IMG/VR virus record: IMGVR_UViG_3300023218_000040
Location: 140,015 to 204,014 of that record
Strand: one strand, 5' to 3'
DNA: 64,000 nt
Origin: a virus
Taxonomy: Duplodnaviria > Caudoviricetes
Shown here: in pieces, positions 2,730 to 54,444 of the stretch
How positions within the stretch are numbered: position 1 is the stretch's first letter
How the letters are laid out: each line of letters opens with the position of its first letter
Notes under the pieces: model-generated
Database searches by the model: none
Seen by the model: only the letters and a program-made list of their open reading frames with translations
Told to the model about the DNA's origin: nothing
Program-made: the position numbers and the translations under genes

Positions 2730-4028
2730 ATGAAGATCATTCCCATCGGACCATCGTTGGTTGTGCTGGTCGGCCCGTCTGGGTCGGGCAAGAGCACGTT
2801 TTGCGAGCGTCATTTTAACGCTCGTGAGGTCGTGTCGTCCGATGCCATCCGGGAGGAATTTACCGGGGATAAGCGCCGTCAGGACAAGAACGACGTAGTG
2901 TTCGCCGAATTCCATCGTCGAATCGCTGTTAAGATTCAGGCGGGTCAGCGGGTGGTGGCGGATGCCACGCATCTGCGGGACAAGGACCGCCGTGCGACTG
3001 CCGAGGTTGGGCTGGTACTCAATGTTCCGGTGACTTACGTTGTGATCGACCGTCCTGTGGAACAGAAGCTCCACACGGGCGGGTGGCGACTGGATGTCCG
3101 GATGAAGGGAGGAATCGGTCTCATTGAGGCTCACAGCGAGACCTTCAAGGCCAATGAGAACAAGATTCTCGCTGGCGACAACATCAAGGGAGTACAGGTC
3201 GTGGATACCCGTATCGACAACTTCGAAGTTGCACAGCCGATGGCTCGTGACGGGGCGGTCACGGCTCTGGCTTCCCGTGGCTTCAAGAACGTGCGGGTGA
3301 TCGGTGACGTTCACGGAAACGTGGAGGGTTTTGATCAGGCGACCGACGCTTCTTCGGACACGTTCTTCCTGTTCCTGGGTGACCTTCTGGACTACGATCC
3401 GAGGGGCATTCATGTAGTGTGTGAGGTTGTGTCCATGATGCGTCAGGGTCACGCCATCAACATTCGAGGTAACCACGAGAAGAAGATCACCAATTGGGTA
3501 ATCGGTGAGCGTGGCGACGGGTTCCGTGGTCGCATCTCGCATGGCAACGATGCCACCACGAATGTTGTCAAGGCGATGTCCCCGAGCCAGCGTGCCAAAT
3601 GGGAAGCTGATTTCCTGGCTCTGGTGGAGATGTCTCCGGACTGGATCCAGCTTGGTGAGTGGCTGTTTACGCACGGTGCGGTGCACCCGGATATGTGGGA
3701 CAACTCCATGTTCCGGGCGCACAAGAACTCCAAGCTGGAGTCCTTCGCCATGTTTGGTGAGACGACTGGTGAGGTCGTGAATGGCTTTCCGGTGCGGAAG
3801 TACGATTGGGTTGACCTGATCCCGGCACAGCACCATGCTGTGGTGGGTCACGCAATCCTCTCGGTCGATGACCCGGTTATCAAGACTGGAACGTTGGGTG
3901 GCGAGGCTGTATTCCTCGACACGGGTTCTTCCAAGGATCTCGATGGTGCCCCTGGCCATCTGTCCTGGATGGATTTCAGCATCAACCACAACCAACTGGT
4001 TTTCCAGGGCTTCGGTCGTCAGCAGTGA
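2730..4028 (+). CDS. pnkp: Polynucleotide kinase-phosphatase (P-loop kinase + metallophosphoesterase), no ligase domain
   Basis: GPSGSGKST, VADATH, RxxR; GDVHG, GDLLD, GNHE, GH; RBS GGAGA before ATG 2730. Confidence 0.85.
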   Translation: MKIIPIGPSLVVLVGPSGSGKSTFCERHFNAREVVSSDAIREEFTGDKRRQDKNDVVFAEFHRRIAVKIQAGQRVVADATHLRDKDRRATAEVGLVLNVPVTYVVIDRPVEQKLHTGGWRLDVRMKGGIGLIEAHSETFKANENKILAGDNIKGVQVVDTRIDNFEVAQPMARDGAVTALASRGFKNVRVIGDVHGNVEGFDQATDASSDTFFLFLGDLLDYDPRGIHVVCEVVSMMRQGHAINIRGNHEKKITNWVIGERGDGFRGRISHGNDATTNVVKAMSPSQRAKWEADFLALVEMSPDWIQLGEWLFTHGAVHPDMWDNSMFRAHKNSKLESFAMFGETTGEVVNGFPVRKYDWVDLIPAQHHAVVGHAILSVDDPVIKTGTLGGEAVFLDTGSSKDLDGAPGHLSWMDFSINHNQLVFQGFGRQQ

Positions 4029-4121
4029 TGCAATGCCGGGTGGGTGCTCCCACCCGGCGGTTGATTTCCTCTTTCCTTACCGTCATATTCATATAACGGT
4101 TCATGGAACCTAAATAAGTTC

Positions 4122-5606
4122 ATGAGGAAATCTAATATGTCTGTGATATCTCGGTTGCCTATTATAACAGCATGCACAGGAATCTTTTTGCTCATGCTAT
4201 CTGCTTTACTTTTCATACATGAAAAGTATTCTACTCCTACTATTCCCATTATTCCTTCTTCTGTAAACCTGGAAACAGATATTGCTTCTGCTCTGGATGA
4301 AGTCATACAACATCTGGAGAAAGAATTCGTTAACGAGACTCCCCTGAAACGAGAAGAGATGCATCAAATTGCAGTAGATGCAATTTTGAAAAAGATAGGA
4401 GACCAACACGGTAAATTTCTTACTAACGATGAATATGGTCGGTTAAAGGATCGGATGACACCGACACATTATGGTGGATTAAACATCCGAGTTGCAAAGC
4501 ACCTAAGTGGTAATGATAAAGCTGAGATATTGATCCTTGAAATATTTGATGGTTCTCCGGTAGGTACATTCGGAGTGCGCCCTGGAGATACTATTAGTCA
4601 TGTAAATGGGATTATGGTAACACCGGACAATTGGGAGGATATGGTCAAGAGTGTTCGTGGCCCAATTGGTTCAGATGTCCGTATCACTGTGAAACGTGAT
4701 AGTAGGGTGAAATTGGGAGAACTAACTTTTCAGCGAGTTCGTTCGAAGCTACAAACCATATTTGCTCATCATGAAAATTGCTACATGCATTTGCGTATTA
4801 GTTTGTTTATTAATAGCCCAGAACAACAGGTATTTGATGCGGTTGAACCCATTCTAAAGGAATGTGATGGTGGTGTTCGTGGTATCGTTCTTGATGTCAG
4901 AAATAATCCTGGTGGATCGTTGCTCGGAGCCATCAAGTTAGTTGACATGTTTCTTGATCCGGATGATGTGGTTGTTAAGACCATAGGTCGTGCAGCAGAG
5001 AACAATATGACCTATAAAGCCGAACATGAAGCTGTGTTCCCAAAATCAATTCCAATGGTTGCTTTGATAAATGGACGTTCAGCATCAGCATCTGAAATTC
5101 TTGTTGGTGCGTTGAAGAAGTATAGAACGCTTTTTGCTGTGCTAGGCGAGAAATCATATGGAAAGGGATCTGTGCAAACTGTGTTTCCAGTGAATGGTGG
5201 CACGTCGGCGGTGAAGATAACGACCGCCATATATCTGGCCGGTGGTACCATCGAAATCGATGGAGTAGGCATCAAGCCAAACGTAGAAGTGAAACAGACA
5301 ATCACTCCTGGTCAAACGGATATGCAGCGTGTAGTAAACACTACCTTGATTTTGAATTCCATGAACCCGGCAGTGGATCACCAACTGCGCATGGGATACC
5401 ATTTTGTTGCTCATCTGGCAAATAACAAAGCAGTAGTTTCCATATCACCTGACCGTGGTGTTCTTCAGGCGTTGGAGTCCGTCGAGGCTCAAAAGCCTGT
5501 GGTAGTTACCGGATCGTTGTGCAGGGAAGCTGGCTTGAGGGGATGCCCCCGACCAAGAGAGGTCTTGCAGGTTCCCTCCTTCGGGACACCAGGAAACCCT
5601 CCCTGA
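4122..5606 (+). CDS. S41 family C-terminal processing protease (CtpA/Prc/Tsp-like) with N-terminal TM helix and PDZ domain
   Basis: PDZ (GGLNIRV..PGD.I), LDVRNNPGG, SASASE catalytic Ser, GKGSVQ catalytic Lys, GIKPN. Confidence 0.9.
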   Translation: MRKSNMSVISRLPIITACTGIFLLMLSALLFIHEKYSTPTIPIIPSSVNLETDIASALDEVIQHLEKEFVNETPLKREEMHQIAVDAILKKIGDQHGKFLTNDEYGRLKDRMTPTHYGGLNIRVAKHLSGNDKAEILILEIFDGSPVGTFGVRPGDTISHVNGIMVTPDNWEDMVKSVRGPIGSDVRITVKRDSRVKLGELTFQRVRSKLQTIFAHHENCYMHLRISLFINSPEQQVFDAVEPILKECDGGVRGIVLDVRNNPGGSLLGAIKLVDMFLDPDDVVVKTIGRAAENNMTYKAEHEAVFPKSIPMVALINGRSASASEILVGALKKYRTLFAVLGEKSYGKGSVQTVFPVNGGTSAVKITTAIYLAGGTIEIDGVGIKPNVEVKQTITPGQTDMQRVVNTTLILNSMNPAVDHQLRMGYHFVAHLANNKAVVSISPDRGVLQALESVEAQKPVVVTGSLCREAGLRGCPRPREVLQVPSFGTPGNPP

Positions 5607-8106: not shown

Positions 8107-8404
8107 GCTTAGCTACGTGGCACATGAGAGCATCCTGAGCTTTTCTCAGTTCGCCCTTAGACCATTCGTCTGGTCCTTTCTGGAATACACCGAGGCGATA
8201 CAGGAACATCTTCATAAGCCTTTCTGCTTCGTCGTCCCATAGGTTATTATCCTGTAGAAAAGAAACCGAGGCACCGACATCACGACCAGGGATGCGTTCT
8301 ATCTCGTCGTTTAGATCAGGACGAAATTTCTTGAGTGTGTTGTAGATGGCGCACTTGGTTTCATTCAGAATAAAGTGTGCCTCCATCAGTTGTTGTATTC
8401 TCAT
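8081..8404 (-). CDS. Hypothetical protein, possible head-associated protein
   Basis: MRIQQLME-type N-terminus shared with other late genes. Confidence 0.55.
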   Translation of the reverse strand: MRIQQLMEAHFILNETKCAIYNTLKKFRPDLNDEIERIPGRDVGASVSFLQDNNLWDDEAERLMKMFLYRLGVFQKGPDEWSKGELRKAQDALMCHVAKLIRQSAPD

Positions 8405-9440: not shown

Positions 9441-9471
9441 TTGACTTATTCACTTATATGGGATATAAATA
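9441..9471 (+). promoter_or_regulatory. Overlapping sigma70 and T4-like late promoter for tmRNA
   Basis: TTGACT(9441)-17 bp-TATAAATA(9464). Confidence 0.8.
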
Positions 9472-9476
9472 AAAGT

Positions 9477-9836
9477 ACAGTTGCTTGAGCGAACACTTGA
9501 AGCTCTACGGACGGCGGTTCGATTCCGCCCATCTCCACTAAACGATGGACATAGAGTAGCAGTGAGTGTACACCGGTACTCTATTTTCATTAGCGGCAGA
9601 TAACGCACAACTGCCACATCTCTGGGGATGCCCTGGTTTTGACGTGGTGATGGATGGCTAGTAGTGAGACTGTCGGGTTAGACTACCCCCGTAAAGGTTC
9701 ACCCAAAGTATCTGCAAACGATGCTGTATATGACGAGGAGGTTCTTCCTCTCGCTGCATAAGCGGGAGCCAAGAATTCCTACTGCGGCTTAACAACCCGC
9801 AACGTCCGGGGTCTAACGAGCCTTGTTACCAAAATC
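9477..9836 (+). ncRNA. ssrA: Circularly permuted two-piece tmRNA; tag (A)ANDAVYDEEVLPLAA* at 9714-9761
   Basis: T-arm GGCGG-TTCGATT-CCGCC and acceptor 3' strand CATCTCC-A (9530-9537) precede the 5' strand GGGGATG (9624); G3.U70 Ala identity; CTGGTTTTGAC; tag reading frame ending AA-stop. Confidence 0.93.
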
Positions 9837-9840
9837 CTAG

Positions 9841-9867
9841 AAAGGGGAGCCTGTGTGCTCCCCTTTT
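9841..9867 (+). terminator. Intrinsic terminator after tmRNA
   Basis: GGGGAGC/GCTCCCC stem followed by TTTT. Confidence 0.8.
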
Positions 9868-9972
9868 GCTTTCCGTAATATTACTCGTCAATCATTTCAC
9901 CAAGAAACTTTTATGCATAGTGAGTTTCAGGGATATATACTTTATGAAAAAATTAACGAGGAGACTCTAATA

Positions 9973-28247: not shown

Positions 28248-30002
28248 ATGAAACTCCTGGAGTTCCTGGACATCATTCGGGAGGATGACACCAGCGAACC
28301 CGGAAAGTTTGTTGGAGCCCGCCTTACCCGAGAATCTGAACGCAATCTCATGCACTGGATGCGTGAGACGGGCTTGCGTAAGCGTGTCCCACGTGCTCGT
28401 CTCCACATCACCGTCATTGGCGATAAGACTAGGAATTTCGATTGGACTCCCGCTGTATTTGATCCACCCCTAGAAGTCGATGCTTCTACGTATAAGCTTC
28501 AACGCTTCGGGGGTGAGAATGAGTGCGTCGTTCTGACGTTTTCCTGCCCTGAGCTAGAGAAACGTCATAACAAGGCACGTAAAGAACATGGTATCCATTA
28601 TGACCATGACCACTATCAGCCACACATTACTGTTAGTGTCGATCCCAAAGAACTGAATAACCTGGAGAGCCTCCTTCTTCCTACCTTCCCGCTGTATATC
28701 GACCGAGAATACGAGCAGCCTTGGGAACACAAATTCAATGAGAGTTCCGAGCGTCGTCGTAAAGAACGTACTAACGAAGATATTCTATTCGAGCGCAACC
28801 TGCTGAATCCTGAAATGGCGATAGATGCTGCTGATCGTTTCTCTGACTCTTTTGCTCAGTTCGGTGTGCATGTCGCTGAATGGGCAAAGAGATCCATGCG
28901 AAAGTATGTCATCAACAATTTCCCTGCTAAGAAAATCATACAGTACGAGTTGATGGATATCATCCCTCCTGACGCAGACAAACAGAAGATTGTTCAGGGT
29001 GCTGCTGTCATTCAATATCCAAACGACCCTGAAACATTCGGTATCCTGAGTGGACGCACTCAAGAGCAAACTCTGTCATTGCCAATCTGGGCTGCAAATG
29101 CTCTCCAACGGGGCGAAGAGATATACTTCCTGGACAGCAAAGCCATTTTTGGAAGGGGAGGACTGGATTATCAAACACGGATGGTTGCAGACTGGTTCAG
29201 AAATTTGTCACGTACTAATCCACAGTTGCTTGAGCCACATCGACTCAACAGAATGTCTTGGGCTCAAGCTCTTCAAGGTACCGAGAAATATCACGAAGAA
29301 CTCAAACGTAGAAAAGAAGCAGACATTGAGGAAGAGGGAGACAAAGAACTGTACCTGGACCTCGGACAGAATGGTCAATGGTGGAAGCTAACGGGACCAT
29401 CATGCCTTGACCGTGAAGGTAACTTGATGGGTCACTGTGTTGCAGATTACATCGATGATGTAGAAAGCGATGAAGCAATCATTCTGTCACTTCGTGACTC
29501 TAAAAACAATCCACATGTTACTGTGGAACTTCGTCCGTTTGAGATGAAGGATGCACAGGGTATTGCAATCGAACAAATCAAGGGTAAAGAAAACGAGCCC
29601 CCTGTGAAGAAGTATTGGCCGCAGGTTGAAGAATTACTCAAACACTTGAAGAGTGAGACCACCATCACGGCTGGTGATGGCATGGGAGAAGAAGACCTCT
29701 TAGCAATGGGTATCATCATTGTTCCATTTGATGACAACGCAATCATTCGAGTGTCAGCAACGGGAGATCCCGGTGACCCATTAGATTGGAGTATTGAAAT
29801 CAAGGGCGTGATTATCGACATGGGCAAGGAGATGGACTACGAGGAAGAAAGCACAGTGGAAGAATTCTCCAACGACAACAATTTGAATCCTCAAGAACTC
29901 ATCTACAACTTAGCCAAGACCGGTGAATATCGAATCGAGGGGTTTGATTCGGATCTCGTAGTCTATCCAACGTATTCATGGTCGATGAAAAAGATTGGTT
30001 AA
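28248..30002 (+). CDS. Fusion of an Acb1/gp57B-like 2H phosphoesterase and a PcfJ-like domain, probable virion protein
   Basis: VPRARLHITV and YQPHITVS HxT motifs and IDREYEQP match T4 gp57B as I recall it; EG..MGHCV..Y..SLRD..N.PHVT.E..QIKGK.N. Confidence 0.8.
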   Translation: MKLLEFLDIIREDDTSEPGKFVGARLTRESERNLMHWMRETGLRKRVPRARLHITVIGDKTRNFDWTPAVFDPPLEVDASTYKLQRFGGENECVVLTFSCPELEKRHNKARKEHGIHYDHDHYQPHITVSVDPKELNNLESLLLPTFPLYIDREYEQPWEHKFNESSERRRKERTNEDILFERNLLNPEMAIDAADRFSDSFAQFGVHVAEWAKRSMRKYVINNFPAKKIIQYELMDIIPPDADKQKIVQGAAVIQYPNDPETFGILSGRTQEQTLSLPIWAANALQRGEEIYFLDSKAIFGRGGLDYQTRMVADWFRNLSRTNPQLLEPHRLNRMSWAQALQGTEKYHEELKRRKEADIEEEGDKELYLDLGQNGQWWKLTGPSCLDREGNLMGHCVADYIDDVESDEAIILSLRDSKNNPHVTVELRPFEMKDAQGIAIEQIKGKENEPPVKKYWPQVEELLKHLKSETTITAGDGMGEEDLLAMGIIIVPFDDNAIIRVSATGDPGDPLDWSIEIKGVIIDMGKEMDYEEESTVEEFSNDNNLNPQELIYNLAKTGEYRIEGFDSDLVVYPTYSWSMKKIG

Positions 30003-40689: not shown

Positions 40690-40818
40690 GCGACAAGACC
40701 ATCCTTCTGGAGCCGAACGAGCGAGATAACTGACTCTATCCTCGCAAAGATATTCGGCAGAATATGGACTAAATCTATTGACTTCCAATTCAAGGAGTGA
40801 TAAATATACAAAACACAT

Positions 40819-40907
40819 GGGTGTTTTTCCCCACTCTGGTCTGTAAAACCAGCGTCAAAAAACCGTGGGGTGGTAGACGGGAGGTTCGATTCCTTGAACA
40901 CCCACCA
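40819..40907 (+). ncRNA. Non-canonical tRNA-like RNA with GTA (Tyr) anticodon and no D-arm in the normal position
   Basis: GGGTGTT/AACACCC acceptor, A73, CCA; CTGGT-CTGTAAA-ACCAG; T-loop TTCGATT; own TAAATA promoter and terminator. Confidence 0.75.
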
Positions 40908-40910
40908 AAT

Positions 40911-40936
40911 AAAAAGGCTCCTTCGGGAGCCTTTTT
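40911..40936. terminator. Intrinsic terminator
   Basis: AAAAAGGCTCC-TTCG-GGAGCCTTTTT. Confidence 0.88.
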
Positions 40937-41018
40937 CATTTGTGACACAGTTCACAGACATTTCCTGAAGAATAGTGTAGGATACATCTATCGACCCAAC
41001 AACCATGAGGAGATAGAG

Positions 41019-41252: not shown

Positions 41253-41281
41253 TTGACAAACGGGATAGAGGAGAGTATAGT
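41253..41281 (+). promoter_or_regulatory. Near-consensus sigma70 promoter driving the long non-coding region
   Basis: TTGACA-17 bp-TATAGT. Confidence 0.8.
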
Positions 41282-45264: not shown

Positions 45265-45344
45265 GCCCCTGTATCCCCTCGGGTTTCTACCCCGATGAAA
45301 GGGTAATTGGACACATGCGGGTTCGAATCCTGTCTGGGGCTCCA
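45265..45344 (+). ncRNA. Non-canonical tRNA-like RNA with TCT (Arg) anticodon and no D-arm in the normal position
   Basis: GCCCCTG/CTGGGGC acceptor + TCCA; TCGGG-TTTCTAC-CCCGA; GCGGG-TTCGAAT-CCTGT; D-loop-like AATTGGA lies after the anticodon arm. Confidence 0.75.
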
Positions 45345-45451: not shown

Positions 45452-46663
45452 ATGGCCACATTTTCAGTTCCAGTCGTCCGTATCGACGCCATCGAGGACC
45501 ATCCCAATGCCGACGCCTTGGAGATCGCCAAGGTGCGTGACTTCGATTGCATCACCCGCATCGGTGAGTACAAGGCTGGTGATATCGCTGTGTACATCCC
45601 CGAGGCTGCGGTCATGCCCGAGTGGCTGCTGAAGCGCATGGGTCTGTGGGATGAGGAGAAAGGCAAAGGCAAGCTGGCAGGCAAAGAAGGCAATCGTGTC
45701 AAGGCTGTCAAGCTGCGTGGCGTCGTGAGTCAGGGTCTGTTGTACCCGGTGTCTTGGGATGACCCAGATCTGTCTCAGGGAGAGACTGTCGGTCTGCCTC
45801 GTGTCGATCTGAGCGACGGCGAAAGCTACCTGCTGTATGACTGGAACGACGTGGACATCGAGACCATCAAGTCTCGTTGCATCGACGTGGACGTGGGAGA
45901 CGTGCTTGGCATCACCAAGTGGGAGCCTCCCATTCCGACGCACATGGCTGGTGAGGTCTGCAACATCTTCGGCCACACTCTGAAGTTCGACATCGAGAAC
46001 ATCCAGAAGCACAACGAGGTTCTGGTTTCGGGCGAGGAGGTCGTGATCACCGAGAAGCTTCACGGCACCTGGACGTGCTTTGGCTTCGATCCGGACCTGG
46101 ATCACGAGGAACTTCTTCACGGTGGCACCATCATCAACTCTAAGGGTCTGAGCGAGCAGGGTTTGGCATTCAAGTGGAACGACGCCAATGACAAGAACCT
46201 GTACGTTCGGATGTTCAAGCAGTACATGCTGGATACTGGTAGATGGAACAAGGTGATGGACATGGCCGTTCGTCGTGGCGAGCCCGTGTTCATCCTGGGT
46301 GAGACCTTCGGTCCTGGTGTACAAGATCTGCACTACGGTCTGAAGGAGAAGAGTTTTCTGGTGTTCGGCATCTACGTCGGCAAGCCGGGTCAGGGTCAAT
46401 ACCTCGATCACGTGGAGTTCAAGCAGACGTGCTCCTGGCTAGAGGTTTCCACGGTACCGGTCCTGTACCATGGTCCGTTCAGCATGGATACTGCCAAGAG
46501 CTTTCGTGACGGAAAGGATACCATCACCGGAGCCAACATTCGGGAGGGTATCGTGATTACTCCGGTTAAAGAACGAAACGATTTCGTGCTGGGTCGGGTG
46601 ACTCTCAAGATGATCAGCCCGGACTACCTGCTGCGGAAGGGCAATGCCACGGAATTCAACTGA
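45452..46663 (+). CDS. RNA ligase, DRB0094/Rnl2-like family with N-terminal OB-like domain
   Basis: HPNADALE, VYIPEAAV, VKAVKLRGVVSQGL, TEKLHGT, GETFG, REGIV, LK.ISPDYL. Confidence 0.88.
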   Translation: MATFSVPVVRIDAIEDHPNADALEIAKVRDFDCITRIGEYKAGDIAVYIPEAAVMPEWLLKRMGLWDEEKGKGKLAGKEGNRVKAVKLRGVVSQGLLYPVSWDDPDLSQGETVGLPRVDLSDGESYLLYDWNDVDIETIKSRCIDVDVGDVLGITKWEPPIPTHMAGEVCNIFGHTLKFDIENIQKHNEVLVSGEEVVITEKLHGTWTCFGFDPDLDHEELLHGGTIINSKGLSEQGLAFKWNDANDKNLYVRMFKQYMLDTGRWNKVMDMAVRRGEPVFILGETFGPGVQDLHYGLKEKSFLVFGIYVGKPGQGQYLDHVEFKQTCSWLEVSTVPVLYHGPFSMDTAKSFRDGKDTITGANIREGIVITPVKERNDFVLGRVTLKMISPDYLLRKGNATEFN

Positions 46664-51529: not shown

Positions 51530-51620
51530 GGAAAGGCTACCGGATTGGCGACCGGCGCTGCCTCGAAAGCAGTTTGAGCCAGCAATGGCTTTGTGGGTTC
51601 GAATCCCACCCCTTCCGCCA
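51530..51620 (+). tRNA. tRNA-Ser(CGA)
   Basis: GCTGC-CTCGAAA-GCAGT, long variable arm, G73, CCA; A5.C68 mismatch. Confidence 0.85.
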
Positions 51621-51706: not shown

Positions 51707-52627
51707 ATGGCTACATTAATCTTAGCCCATTATTACGCTCCCATCGAAGTACAGCGTATCGCTGACCACACGGGCGATAGCCTGGAACTAGCCCGAGTAG
51801 CACAAGAAGAGAAAGCAGACCGCATTGTGTTTGCTGGTGTTCGCTTCATGGCTGAAACAGCTAAGGTGCTCAACCCGGAATCCGAAGTCATCCTACCAGA
51901 TTGGGGATCTACCTGTTCCTTGGTCGAACAGACCGATACCAACGATCTCCAGAGATGGAGGGATGAACATTCGGACCACACCCATGTGATGTACATCAAT
52001 TCCAGCGTAGCTCAGAAGGCTATGGCGGACTGGATCGTGACCTCACGTAACGTGGAACCAATTATTACAAGCTTACTCAACGAGGGTAAAAAGGTGATGT
52101 TTTCACCTGACCGAAACATGGGAGCATACTACAGACGTAAACTTGATATCGATATGCCTATCTGGTTTGCTGTCTGTGAGGTCCATGACCGATTTGATAT
52201 CGAGATGTTACAAGAACGATTCGAGCAACATCCAAATCGATTCTTGATTGCTCACCCAGAAAGTCCAATGGCTATCTTGGACGAGTCGGACTTCATCGCA
52301 TCCACCAAGGGCATGCTTGAATGGGTCAAAATGTATGATGGTCCATCCGATGCAACGATCTTTGTGGCAACGGAATACGAGCTTCTGGAAATCATGAAGG
52401 AAGAGCGTCCAGACCTGAAGATTTCCCAGGTACCAGAGTTCTTGGGATGTCGTTGTGTAAAGTGTCCGTACATGAAGCTCAACACGATGCAGAAGGTTCA
52501 GGATGCCATCAACGGAAAGTCTGGTGTTCCAATTGACTACATTACCGATGAGCAAGCAGAACGTGCGAGGACACCAATCGAAAGGATGGTGTCCTTTAAG
52601 GAGACTGTGCCAGTCATGGGTATCTAA
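51707..52627 (+). CDS. nadA: Quinolinate synthase
   Basis: ILAHYY, GDSL.LA, GVRFMAETAK.LNP, three Fe-S Cys (TCSL, CEVH, CPYM), AHPE, ST.GM. Confidence 0.93.
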   Translation: MATLILAHYYAPIEVQRIADHTGDSLELARVAQEEKADRIVFAGVRFMAETAKVLNPESEVILPDWGSTCSLVEQTDTNDLQRWRDEHSDHTHVMYINSSVAQKAMADWIVTSRNVEPIITSLLNEGKKVMFSPDRNMGAYYRRKLDIDMPIWFAVCEVHDRFDIEMLQERFEQHPNRFLIAHPESPMAILDESDFIASTKGMLEWVKMYDGPSDATIFVATEYELLEIMKEERPDLKISQVPEFLGCRCVKCPYMKLNTMQKVQDAINGKSGVPIDYITDEQAERARTPIERMVSFKETVPVMGI

Positions 52628-54076: not shown

Positions 54077-54444
54077 GTGCAGGTATTCAAGCTATCGCTC
54101 GGCCCATTTTATTGGGAGAGAGGAAGTTCGGGACACCATAGTGCAGACCAGTGGGGAAATCCCACCCGGCGTAATGCTGAGGACAAGTGCCATAGAGACA
54201 GACAGCCGATGGCTCACCCTTCGGGTAGGTTGAGCACAGGCAATAGGTGGAACGGTGGTGTAAGAGACCACACGTAGCATGGCGACATGTTGCGGAAGCA
54301 AACTCTGGTCGGTGCAACTCCAGACAGCTCTGATGACTCGGCACGACGAGGGGCGGGTAGGGGGCGAAGAGGGGTGCTGAAAAGCATACCCCAAGATGAA
54401 TGATAGCTCTTGACAGAATCCCGGCTATAGATATCGTAAAGCAC
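54077..54444 (+). ncRNA. rnpB: RNase P RNA, bacterial type A
   Basis: P2 AGCTATC/GATAGCT, GAGGAAGTTCGGG, AGTGCCATAGAGA, CGATGGC, GGTAAGAG-like, AGATGAATGA, ACAGAATCCCGGCTATA. Confidence 0.92.

Follow-up and report, generated by a model that had tools for sequence, protein, structure and literature searches.

We describe here a tRNA-Tyr gene in which the two strands of the D helix lie on either side of the anticodon arm and pair with each other as a pseudoknot. The gene (positions 40819-40907, + strand) was found in the window, by which we mean the whole stretch of DNA analysed, the final 64 kilobases (kb) of the 204-kb IMG/VR virus record IMGVR_UViG_3300023218_000040. From comparison of its sequence with those of its relatives, we think that it probably encodes a functional elongator tRNA-Tyr with a permuted backbone, in which the block of positions 10-21 is transposed behind the anticodon arm, and we put the probability of this reading at roughly 0.7. 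In the proposed chain, an 8-base pair (bp) acceptor strand would be followed by UU, CCCCAC (the equivalent of the D 3' strand), position 26 and the anticodon arm. The 5' strand of the variable stem, an A-rich linker, GUGGGG, N-G18-G19-N-N, the 3' strand of the variable stem and a 4-bp T arm would come next, and the chain would close with the 3' acceptor strand, A73 and CCA. The D strands would pair over 30 nucleotides (nt) and stack on the anticodon stem, the GG would be offered to the T loop, and the usual L shape would be restored with a 12-bp acceptor/T branch.

The features of the gene are listed in Table 1. Only 10 nt separate the 7-bp acceptor stem from the anticodon stem, the two D strands stand 30 nt apart with the anticodon arm inside that gap, and the variable loop is enlarged to 19 nt, which hold a D strand and the GG. 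A sequence-only reading of this DNA had described an acceptor stem, a GTA anticodon arm, a T arm, CCA, G1-C72, A73, CGTC/GACG, CCCCAC/GTGGGG and TGGTA, and all of these are where it had placed them. Its description of the acceptor and T arms as intact also stands, but their lengths are refined here to an 8-bp acceptor and a 4-bp T stem, since T40826 pairs with G40896.

Table 1. Coordinates of the rewired tRNA-Tyr gene, its signals and associated features (window positions unless a locus or accession is given).
Feature	Position	Strand	Evidence
Complete rewired tRNA-Tyr(GUA) gene, 89 nt with encoded CCA	40819-40907	+	93.6 bits, family model R1
Acceptor stem 5' strand, 8 nt (GGGTGTT-T), partner 40896-40903	40819-40826	+	8/8 pairs covary
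UU linker from acceptor stem to in-place D strand	40827-40828	+	near-invariant: T in 38/44 (column 9) and 41/44 (column 10)
In-place D-helix strand CCCCAC, equivalent of positions 20a-25, partner 40865-40870	40829-40834	+	covariation
T40835, stand-in for tRNA position 26	40835	+	
Anticodon arm CTGGT-CTGTAAA-ACCAG, 5-bp stem, loop CUGUAAA	40836-40852	+	5/5 stem pairs covary
Anticodon GUA (GTA in DNA)	40843-40845	+	
Variable-stem 5' strand CGTC, partner GACG 40876-40879	40853-40856	+	97.7% paired; double changes at 3/4 pairs
A-rich linker AAAAAACC back to D helix	40857-40864	+	7-14 nt and A/U-rich in relatives
Transposed D-helix strand GUGGGG, equivalent of positions 10-15	40865-40870	+	18 fully complementary hexamer pairs; covariation
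Transposed D-loop remnant UGGUA; G40872-G40873 equivalent to G18-G19	40871-40875	+	column 60 is G in 43/44
Variable-stem 3' strand GACG	40876-40879	+	covariation
G40880, unpaired spacer	40880	+	
T arm: 4-bp stem GAGG/CCTT, loop TTCGATT	40881-40895	+	sequence; covariation
Acceptor 3' strand G-AACACCC	40896-40903	+	sequence
Discriminator A73; CCA	40904; 40905-40907	+	sequence
Sigma-70-like promoter: TTGACT (40778-83), 17-nt spacer, extended -10 TG-n-TAAATA (40798-40806)	40778-40806	+	read from sequence
Intrinsic terminator hairpin GGCTCC-TTCG-GGAGCC, then TTTTT	40916-40936	+	sequence; terminator-like Rfam match 40911-40943
Second rewired tRNA of this phage, tRNA-Arg(UCU), 7/5 type	45265-45344	+	sequence and covariation of relatives
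RNA ligase gene, PF09414 and PHA02142 OB fold, immediately after tRNA cluster	45452-46663	+	
584-residue protein, N-terminal Acb1 (anti-CBASS) domain and PcfJ-like domain	28248-30002	+	
Unannotated 7/5-type rewired tRNA-Tyr, Bacteroides phage crAss001	L347:2494-2592; NC_049977.1 about 4142-4238		

The architecture is carried by compensatory change among the relatives of the gene. Pair counts were made on a model-made alignment (A3) of 44 sequences, 42 Tyr and two Arg, in whose making the long-range helix played no part. The sequence-only reading had proposed that the D helix forms as a pseudoknot between CCCCAC and GTGGGG and that a covariance model of homologues should reveal covariation between these strands, and strong compensatory covariation is indeed what we find: in columns 11-16 with 51-56, 94.7% of cells are paired and five of the six pairs have changed on both sides, while the unpaired cells stem from a few rows that are offset by one column. 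None of 500 whole-structure shuffles matched the observed values, and sliding the long-range partners by a single column lowered pairing to about 47%. In the individual sequences, 18 different hexamer pairs are complementary at all six positions, among them CCCCAC/GUGGGG, CCCUAC/GUAGGG, CCUCAC/GUGAGG, CUCUAC/GUAGAG, CCACAC/GUGUGG and CCUAUU/AAUAGG, and one more pair is complementary at five of the six. The acceptor, anticodon and variable stems covary too, with compensatory changes in every helix across the 44 sequences, which come from unrelated contigs. The long-range helix is far beyond chance, and the architecture of the tRNA-Tyr gene is confirmed.

The same alignment bears on the elbow and on the branch. 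Position 8 and position 65 always form a standard pair, and this pair covaries (GC in 25 sequences, UG in 10, AU in six, UA in two and CG in one); therefore, the branch consists of an 8-bp acceptor and a 4-bp T stem (8/4). The equivalent of G19 is G in 43 of the 44 sequences and C56 is invariant. The moved strand is followed by N-G-G wherever the T loop starts with UUC, with the exception of Pseudomonas phage Rembedalsseter (UGUGU), and by (N)U-A-G in exactly four sequences, namely those with G55 in the T loop. GG thus occurs with U55 in 39 sequences and AG with G55 in four, with no mixed case. This change from G18:U55 to A18:G55, together with the conserved G that follows and the invariant C56, supports a contact between the D loop and the T loop, as had been suggested when the displaced GG was proposed to rebuild the elbow. 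Some relatives depart from the standard helices. Nine loci (L086, L096, L121, L122, L127, L143, L158, L173 and L185) have a T arm of the form UUAGG...CCUU(C/U) with a U50-U64 mismatch, which leaves a T stem of just three Watson-Crick pairs plus U-U, and at acceptor pairs 4:69 and 5:68 of two others (L069:1179-1270, - strand; L070:3688-3779, + strand) there are tandem G-A/A-G mismatches.

This gene is not seen by the usual tools. ARAGORN called 12 tRNAs and one transfer-messenger RNA (tmRNA) in the window and, as the sequence-only reading had predicted, the gene at 40819-40907 was not among them. Rfam at gathering thresholds, RF00005 included, gave no match there; under permissive settings the sole match from the tRNA clan was tRNA-Sec (RF01852), with 24.8 bits, below the cut-off of 47. 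The nested minimum-energy fold of the 89 nt (ViennaRNA) contains no cloverleaf and has a z-score of -0.43 against shuffles, a value that is uninformative here because the key helix is a pseudoknot and is invisible to nested folding.

Relatives were collected in two scans, one of IMG/VR viral contigs and one of prokaryotic genome assemblies, with a pattern that specified nothing beyond the anticodon loop, a long spacer and the T-loop motif and left the D strands unconstrained; the member counts are lower bounds. At least 42 distinct Tyr relatives were found, in IMG/VR phages, in one cultured Pseudomonas phage and in tRNA arrays of Planctomycetaceae and other metagenome-assembled genomes (MAGs). 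When the variable stem was fixed as CGTC/GACG a single locus was returned, because this stem differs among relatives, whereas a scan fixing TTCCCCAC returned 67 loci, mostly coding-sequence noise, and was excluded from the covariation argument. Searches of cultured phages with the region (megablast and blastn) gave one true homologue, in Pseudomonas phage Rembedalsseter, which is unannotated and differs in its acceptor and anticodon stems while keeping an identical architecture. A match to phiAS5 was rejected as a homologue, as the alignment spans the terminator hairpin only, and a BLAST search of cultured phages with a second, A-type query gave no match. A covariance model (R1) was built from 33 members with the pseudoknot left out. 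It scored the 42 distinct Tyr members at 64-95 bits and two tRNA-Arg(UCU) genes at 46-50 bits; ordinary tRNAs in the same 421 kb scored at most 33 bits.

The gene also has the makings of a tyrosine tRNA. A73 and G1-C72 are determinants of bacterial Tyr identity (PMC9976931), and the gene has the bacterial set of A73, G1-C72, G34-U35 and a long variable arm. Every one of the 42 Tyr members has A as its discriminator and both Arg members have G, G1-C72 is present in 39 of the 44 aligned sequences, and most family members encode CCA. Two relatives (L069 and L119) begin with C1-G72, the Tyr pair of the archaeal and eukaryotic type. When ARAGORN was run on 48 loci that carry a rewired Tyr gene, a canonical tRNA-Tyr was found in three only. 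In 12 of the 12 tRNA-richest loci Tyr was the missing amino acid and the rewired gene was present, and clusters of 36 and 31 tRNAs lack Tyr alone by the same criterion. The rewired gene fills an otherwise empty Tyr slot in these tRNA clusters, which lends indirect support to charging by TyrRS and decoding of UAY. Neither a canonical tRNA-Tyr nor a phage-encoded tyrosyl-tRNA synthetase (TyrRS) gene was found in the 204 kb of this phage's record.

In Planctomycetaceae MAGs, the rewired tRNA-Tyr lies inside arrays of 14-34 tRNA genes. Six such Planctomycetaceae/Planctomycetota MAG contigs (L200, L222, L293, L299, L226 and L300), which are large and chromosomal, have 14-34 tRNAs within 8 kb, without encoded CCA. 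Carriage is restricted to seven of 121 Planctomycetaceae-family genomes, in single copy, and the same genomes retain a canonical tRNA-Tyr elsewhere; both findings led us to reject it as the ordinary tRNA-Tyr of Planctomycetes. The rewired tRNA-Tyr of Planctomycetaceae is accessory rather than housekeeping, and is probably mobile.

With regard to expression, the sequence-only reading had given the gene its own late promoter and terminator. Both signals are present, but the promoter is sigma-70-like and its assignment to the late class is unsupported. The predicted transcription start is about 6 nt before G1. An automated promoter and terminator scan listed neither signal, and both rest on our reading of the DNA; the promoter is absent from that listing because its -10 element ends in A. 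In Pseudomonas phage Rembedalsseter, TTGACA-17-TATACT, likewise of sigma-70 type, stands upstream of the homologue. A further, perfect-looking promoter, TTGACA-17-TATAGT, lies at 41253-41281 (+ strand), just 3' of the tRNA-Tyr unit, and the stretch from there to 41922 has no long open reading frame. A search for RNA-seq runs that contain this DNA found none. The RNA would be transcribed from its own sigma-70-type promoter, matured by RNase P and at its CCA end, charged by the host TyrRS (A73, G1-C72, GUA and a long variable arm being present) and used by the ribosome. Other tRNAs with the 8/4 layout support translation in E. coli (PMC5389517).

An important question is which of the two D strands has moved. 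The in-place strand is joined to the anticodon stem by one nucleotide, and positions 25-26-27 connect likewise in any tRNA; as one nucleotide cannot bridge a 6-bp helix, it must be the in-place strand that corresponds to the D 3' strand. After the moved strand comes N-G-G-N, the order in which positions 15-16-18-19-20 run in tRNA-Sec and allo-tRNAs, whose D arm is 6-bp/4-nt. We infer that the moved block comprises the D 5' strand and the D loop (positions 10-21), and that blocks 10-21 and 22-45 are swapped. Processing to a normal cloverleaf by excision, as an intron or through circular permutation was rejected on inspection, since the D strands flank the anticodon arm and the RNA already has acceptor ends as its termini.

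Some points weigh against reading the gene as a functional tRNA-Tyr with a permuted backbone. Neighbours in the tRNA core are known from the triples 9:23:12, 45:10:25 and 46:22:13 and from U8:A14:A21, and the statement that the new joints (9-to-22, 45-to-10 and 20/21-to-46) would link core neighbours is reasoned from known tRNA structures. Because the scans demanded CTGTAAA, ascertainment accounts in part for the invariant anticodon loop. The estimated completeness of the virus record is only about 55%. Finally, three loci (L003, L047 and L164) hold a canonical tRNA-Tyr beside the rewired one, which is not always the sole Tyr tRNA.

The rewiring is not confined to the 8/4 tRNA-Tyr family. Two relatives on the 8/4 plan are tRNA-Arg(UCU) genes (L034:7007-7095, - strand; L101:13635-13722, + strand), which reach 46-50 bits with the Tyr-derived model; the phages that carry them each carry a rewired tRNA-Tyr as well, and in these Arg genes an A follows GG and G serves as the discriminator. 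The phage described here has a second rewired tRNA, also tRNA-Arg(UCU), on a 7/5 design, which directly follows two tRNA-Glu genes and was missed by ARAGORN and Rfam. It consists of U8-A9, an in-place UCCC, the anticodon arm, a GAAA linker, the moved GGG-U and a textbook D loop, AAUUGGA. One narrow scan found 22 distinct relatives of this 7/5 Arg type, with the Arg anticodons UCU, UCG, ACG and CCU and the Ile anticodon GAU. Wherever pairs could be scored, the 3-bp long-range helix of these relatives is 100% paired, and each of the three pairs shows double changes (CCC/GGG, ACC/GGU, CGC/GCG, GCC/GGC, CAC/GUG, CUC/GAG and ACA/UGU); a subgroup of five in the scan, four of them aligned, carries C-A in place of the third pair, a mismatch that falls in gapped, uncounted cells. 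All Arg versions, both 8/4-type genes included, have an A right after the GG, equivalent to A20, which is the main determinant for arginyl-tRNA synthetase (PMC9976931). Its retention is an argument for the moved segment serving a synthetase as a D loop.

There is also a 7/5-type tRNA-Tyr, with U8-A9, an in-place ACNNN and a moved NNNGU followed by AUUGG, whose 5-bp long-range helix is 100% paired in eight sequences. In crAss001 this gene occupies the gap between tRNA-Lys and tRNA-Phe in a 23-tRNA cluster that is otherwise without Tyr, and its sequence matches 31 crAss-like phage records (crAss001 and 30 related). Another locus (L164, IMG/VR contig 3300030339_000134) has 7/5-type candidates for Ile(UAU), Ile(GAU) and Arg(UCG) at about 4010-4186 and at 8200-8283, with strand pairs CGU/ACG, ACAG/CUGU and AUA/UAU, alongside a rewired and a canonical Tyr gene. 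Tentatively, and with odds that fall well short of even, these tRNAs may form a general class of segment-transposed tRNAs of phages and mobile arrays, with at least two designs and at least three amino-acid families, that would be fully active in translation, invisible to tRNA finders and favoured by selection because the tRNA-directed immunity nucleases of hosts fail to recognize or cleave them.

Several known RNAs share parts of this architecture. The bacterial class II tRNA-Tyr has the same CUGUAAA loop with GUA, A73, G1-C72 and a variable stem right after the anticodon stem (that of E. coli likewise starts with CGUC directly after the anticodon stem), whereas the rewired form has no D hairpin, is 8/4 rather than 7/5 and has a 19-nt variable loop that holds a D strand and GG. 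The 8/4 layout itself is known from allo-tRNAs and from some phage tRNA-Ser and tRNA-His (PMC5389517). The allo-tRNAs and the (8/4) tRNA-Ser/His of bacteria and alpha-proteobacterial phages resemble the rewired tRNA in their 12-bp branch split 8/4, two-nucleotide linker, tRNA-Sec-style 6-bp D helix with an N-G-G-N loop and long variable arm, and they too occur in the tRNA clusters of phages (PMC5389517). However, allo-tRNAs have a local D hairpin, in contrast to pseudoknotted D strands split by the anticodon arm, and their identity is Ser/His or suppressor (Ser: G73/U73) rather than Tyr (A73, GUA). tRNA-Sec (RF01852) shares the extended acceptor stem, 6-bp D helix and long variable arm, but has a 13-bp branch (8/5 or 9/4) and UCA; the rewired tRNA has a 12-bp branch, GUA and no D hairpin.

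Other parallels are of a different kind. D-armless mitochondrial tRNAs of nematodes and mites also have about 10 nt between the acceptor and anticodon stems, but they are floppy, having lost both the D helix and the contacts of the elbow, whereas the rewired tRNA would rebuild these from the relocated segment. The T5-like tRNA-Tyr that escapes Retron-Eco7 PtuAB (PMC11555353, PMC12673091) is likewise phage-encoded, with its own promoter and a longer, altered variable loop; unlike the rewired form, it retains a normal cloverleaf. Circularly permuted and split tRNA genes of red algae and archaea share an unusual order of segments but are processed back to a cloverleaf, whereas the mature rewired RNA must itself be permuted, because its termini are normal acceptor ends. 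The tRNA-like structures of turnip yellow mosaic virus and brome mosaic virus also use a pseudoknot to mimic a tRNA arm, but there what it builds is a 3'-terminal acceptor arm on the genome, in a non-decoding RNA. The sequence-only reading had called the topology one that it did not recognize, and we found no description of it in the open-access literature searched, a scope that is not proof of absence. A 2020 review of non-canonical tRNAs mentions neither pseudoknots nor phages, and the architecture is absent from the allo-tRNA paper (PMC5389517) and from a survey of structured phage RNAs.

What a phage might gain from such a tRNA can be approached through known immunity systems. The PtuA-PtuB nuclease of Retron-Eco7 and of a Septu system cleaves tRNA-Tyr within its variable loop at U47/C48, and T5-like phages escape through their own tRNA-Tyr, the escape depending on its longer variable loop (PMC11555353, PMC12673091, PMC13096335). 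The likeliest benefit, to which we would give a little less than an even chance, is a replacement tRNA-Tyr that misfits nucleases such as PtuAB/Septu in its variable region and core; a variable region locked by a pseudoknot would carry the T5-like escape to an extreme. Evasion of anticodon nucleases, or a decoy role towards them, had been raised from the sequence; evasion by way of changes in the anticodon loop is not indicated, and PtuAB/Septu is the better-matched threat, as that loop is an ordinary CUGUAAA. The RNA ligase and Acb1-domain genes of the window (Table 1) suggest an investment in RNA repair and counter-defence that is compatible with a setting of conflict.

Alternatively, the gene could encode a working tRNA-Tyr whose rewiring has nothing to do with immunity and is either a variant tolerated on mobile clusters or one with a role in stability, modification or folding speed. 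We regard this as rather unlikely. Both tRNA-Tyr and tRNA-Arg are known nuclease targets (colicin D targets tRNA-Arg), and the restriction of the genes to phages and patchy accessory arrays, in genomes that keep a canonical tRNA-Tyr, fits a spread driven by conflict rather than a neutral one. However, the rewiring extends over at least three isoacceptor families (Tyr, Arg and Ile) and two designs, not just a known nuclease target, and phage 8/4 tRNA-Ser and tRNA-His have no known link to defence (PMC5389517). Improbable, in our view, is a decoy or sponge, a look-alike that would occupy a host nuclease or sensor directed at tRNA-Tyr and go unused in translation. The body is indeed strongly remodelled in the variable loop, exactly the region cut by PtuAB/Septu, and PtuAB toxicity is neutralized by overexpressed tRNA-Tyr (PMC12673091). 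Nevertheless, the features that translation demands of a tRNA are all kept: the acceptor/T branch has 12 bp, A73-CCA is present, the anticodon loop is a normal one of 7 nt and the elbow pair is preserved; furthermore, the rewired gene fills the empty Tyr slot of near-complete tRNA sets, and the same rewiring in Arg tRNAs retains the synthetase determinant A20. It is very improbable that the gene yields a tRNA-shaped regulatory or priming RNA rather than a functional tRNA: rejection by tRNA finders and possession of its own promoter and terminator would fit such a role, but most relatives lie within tRNA clusters and have tRNA-type ends and Tyr identity elements. Lastly, a decayed pseudogene with chance complementarity, for which the nested fold no better than random might speak, has a negligible probability, since the nested test is blind to pseudoknots and the compensatory changes in every helix across the 44 sequences rule it out.

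Other features of the window deserve mention alongside this functional tRNA-Tyr candidate. A full-length bacterial class A RNase P RNA (54082-54439, + strand; 168 bits, E 1.6e-52) lies near tRNA genes and may assist the processing of unusual tRNAs. There is a circularly permuted, two-piece tmRNA at 9477-9761 (+ strand), matching RF04321 at 95 bits and called by ARAGORN as a permuted tmRNA at 9448-9883. A tRNA-Ser(CGA) at 51530-51620 (+ strand), which scores 33.9 bits with the Rfam tRNA model, may be non-standard, and it is followed by a quinolinate synthase (NadA) gene at 51707-52627 (+ strand).

In summary, as the rewired genes are missed by tRNA finders, tRNAs are under-counted in inventories of phages and tRNA arrays, the 'missing' tRNA-Tyr of crAss001, a well-studied gut phage, being an example. 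The link to variable-loop-cutting defence is a directly testable idea of how phages might escape tRNA-targeting immunity, and the cultured phages crAss001 and Pseudomonas phage Rembedalsseter make such tests feasible. If decoding by the rewired tRNA is true, it would bear on the evolution of tRNA, on the design of orthogonal tRNAs and on how the shape of tRNA is read by RNase P, the CCA enzyme, synthetases, EF-Tu and the ribosome. The cloverleaf would then not be the sole backbone path to a working cellular tRNA, and the same helices and contacts could be threaded in another order.

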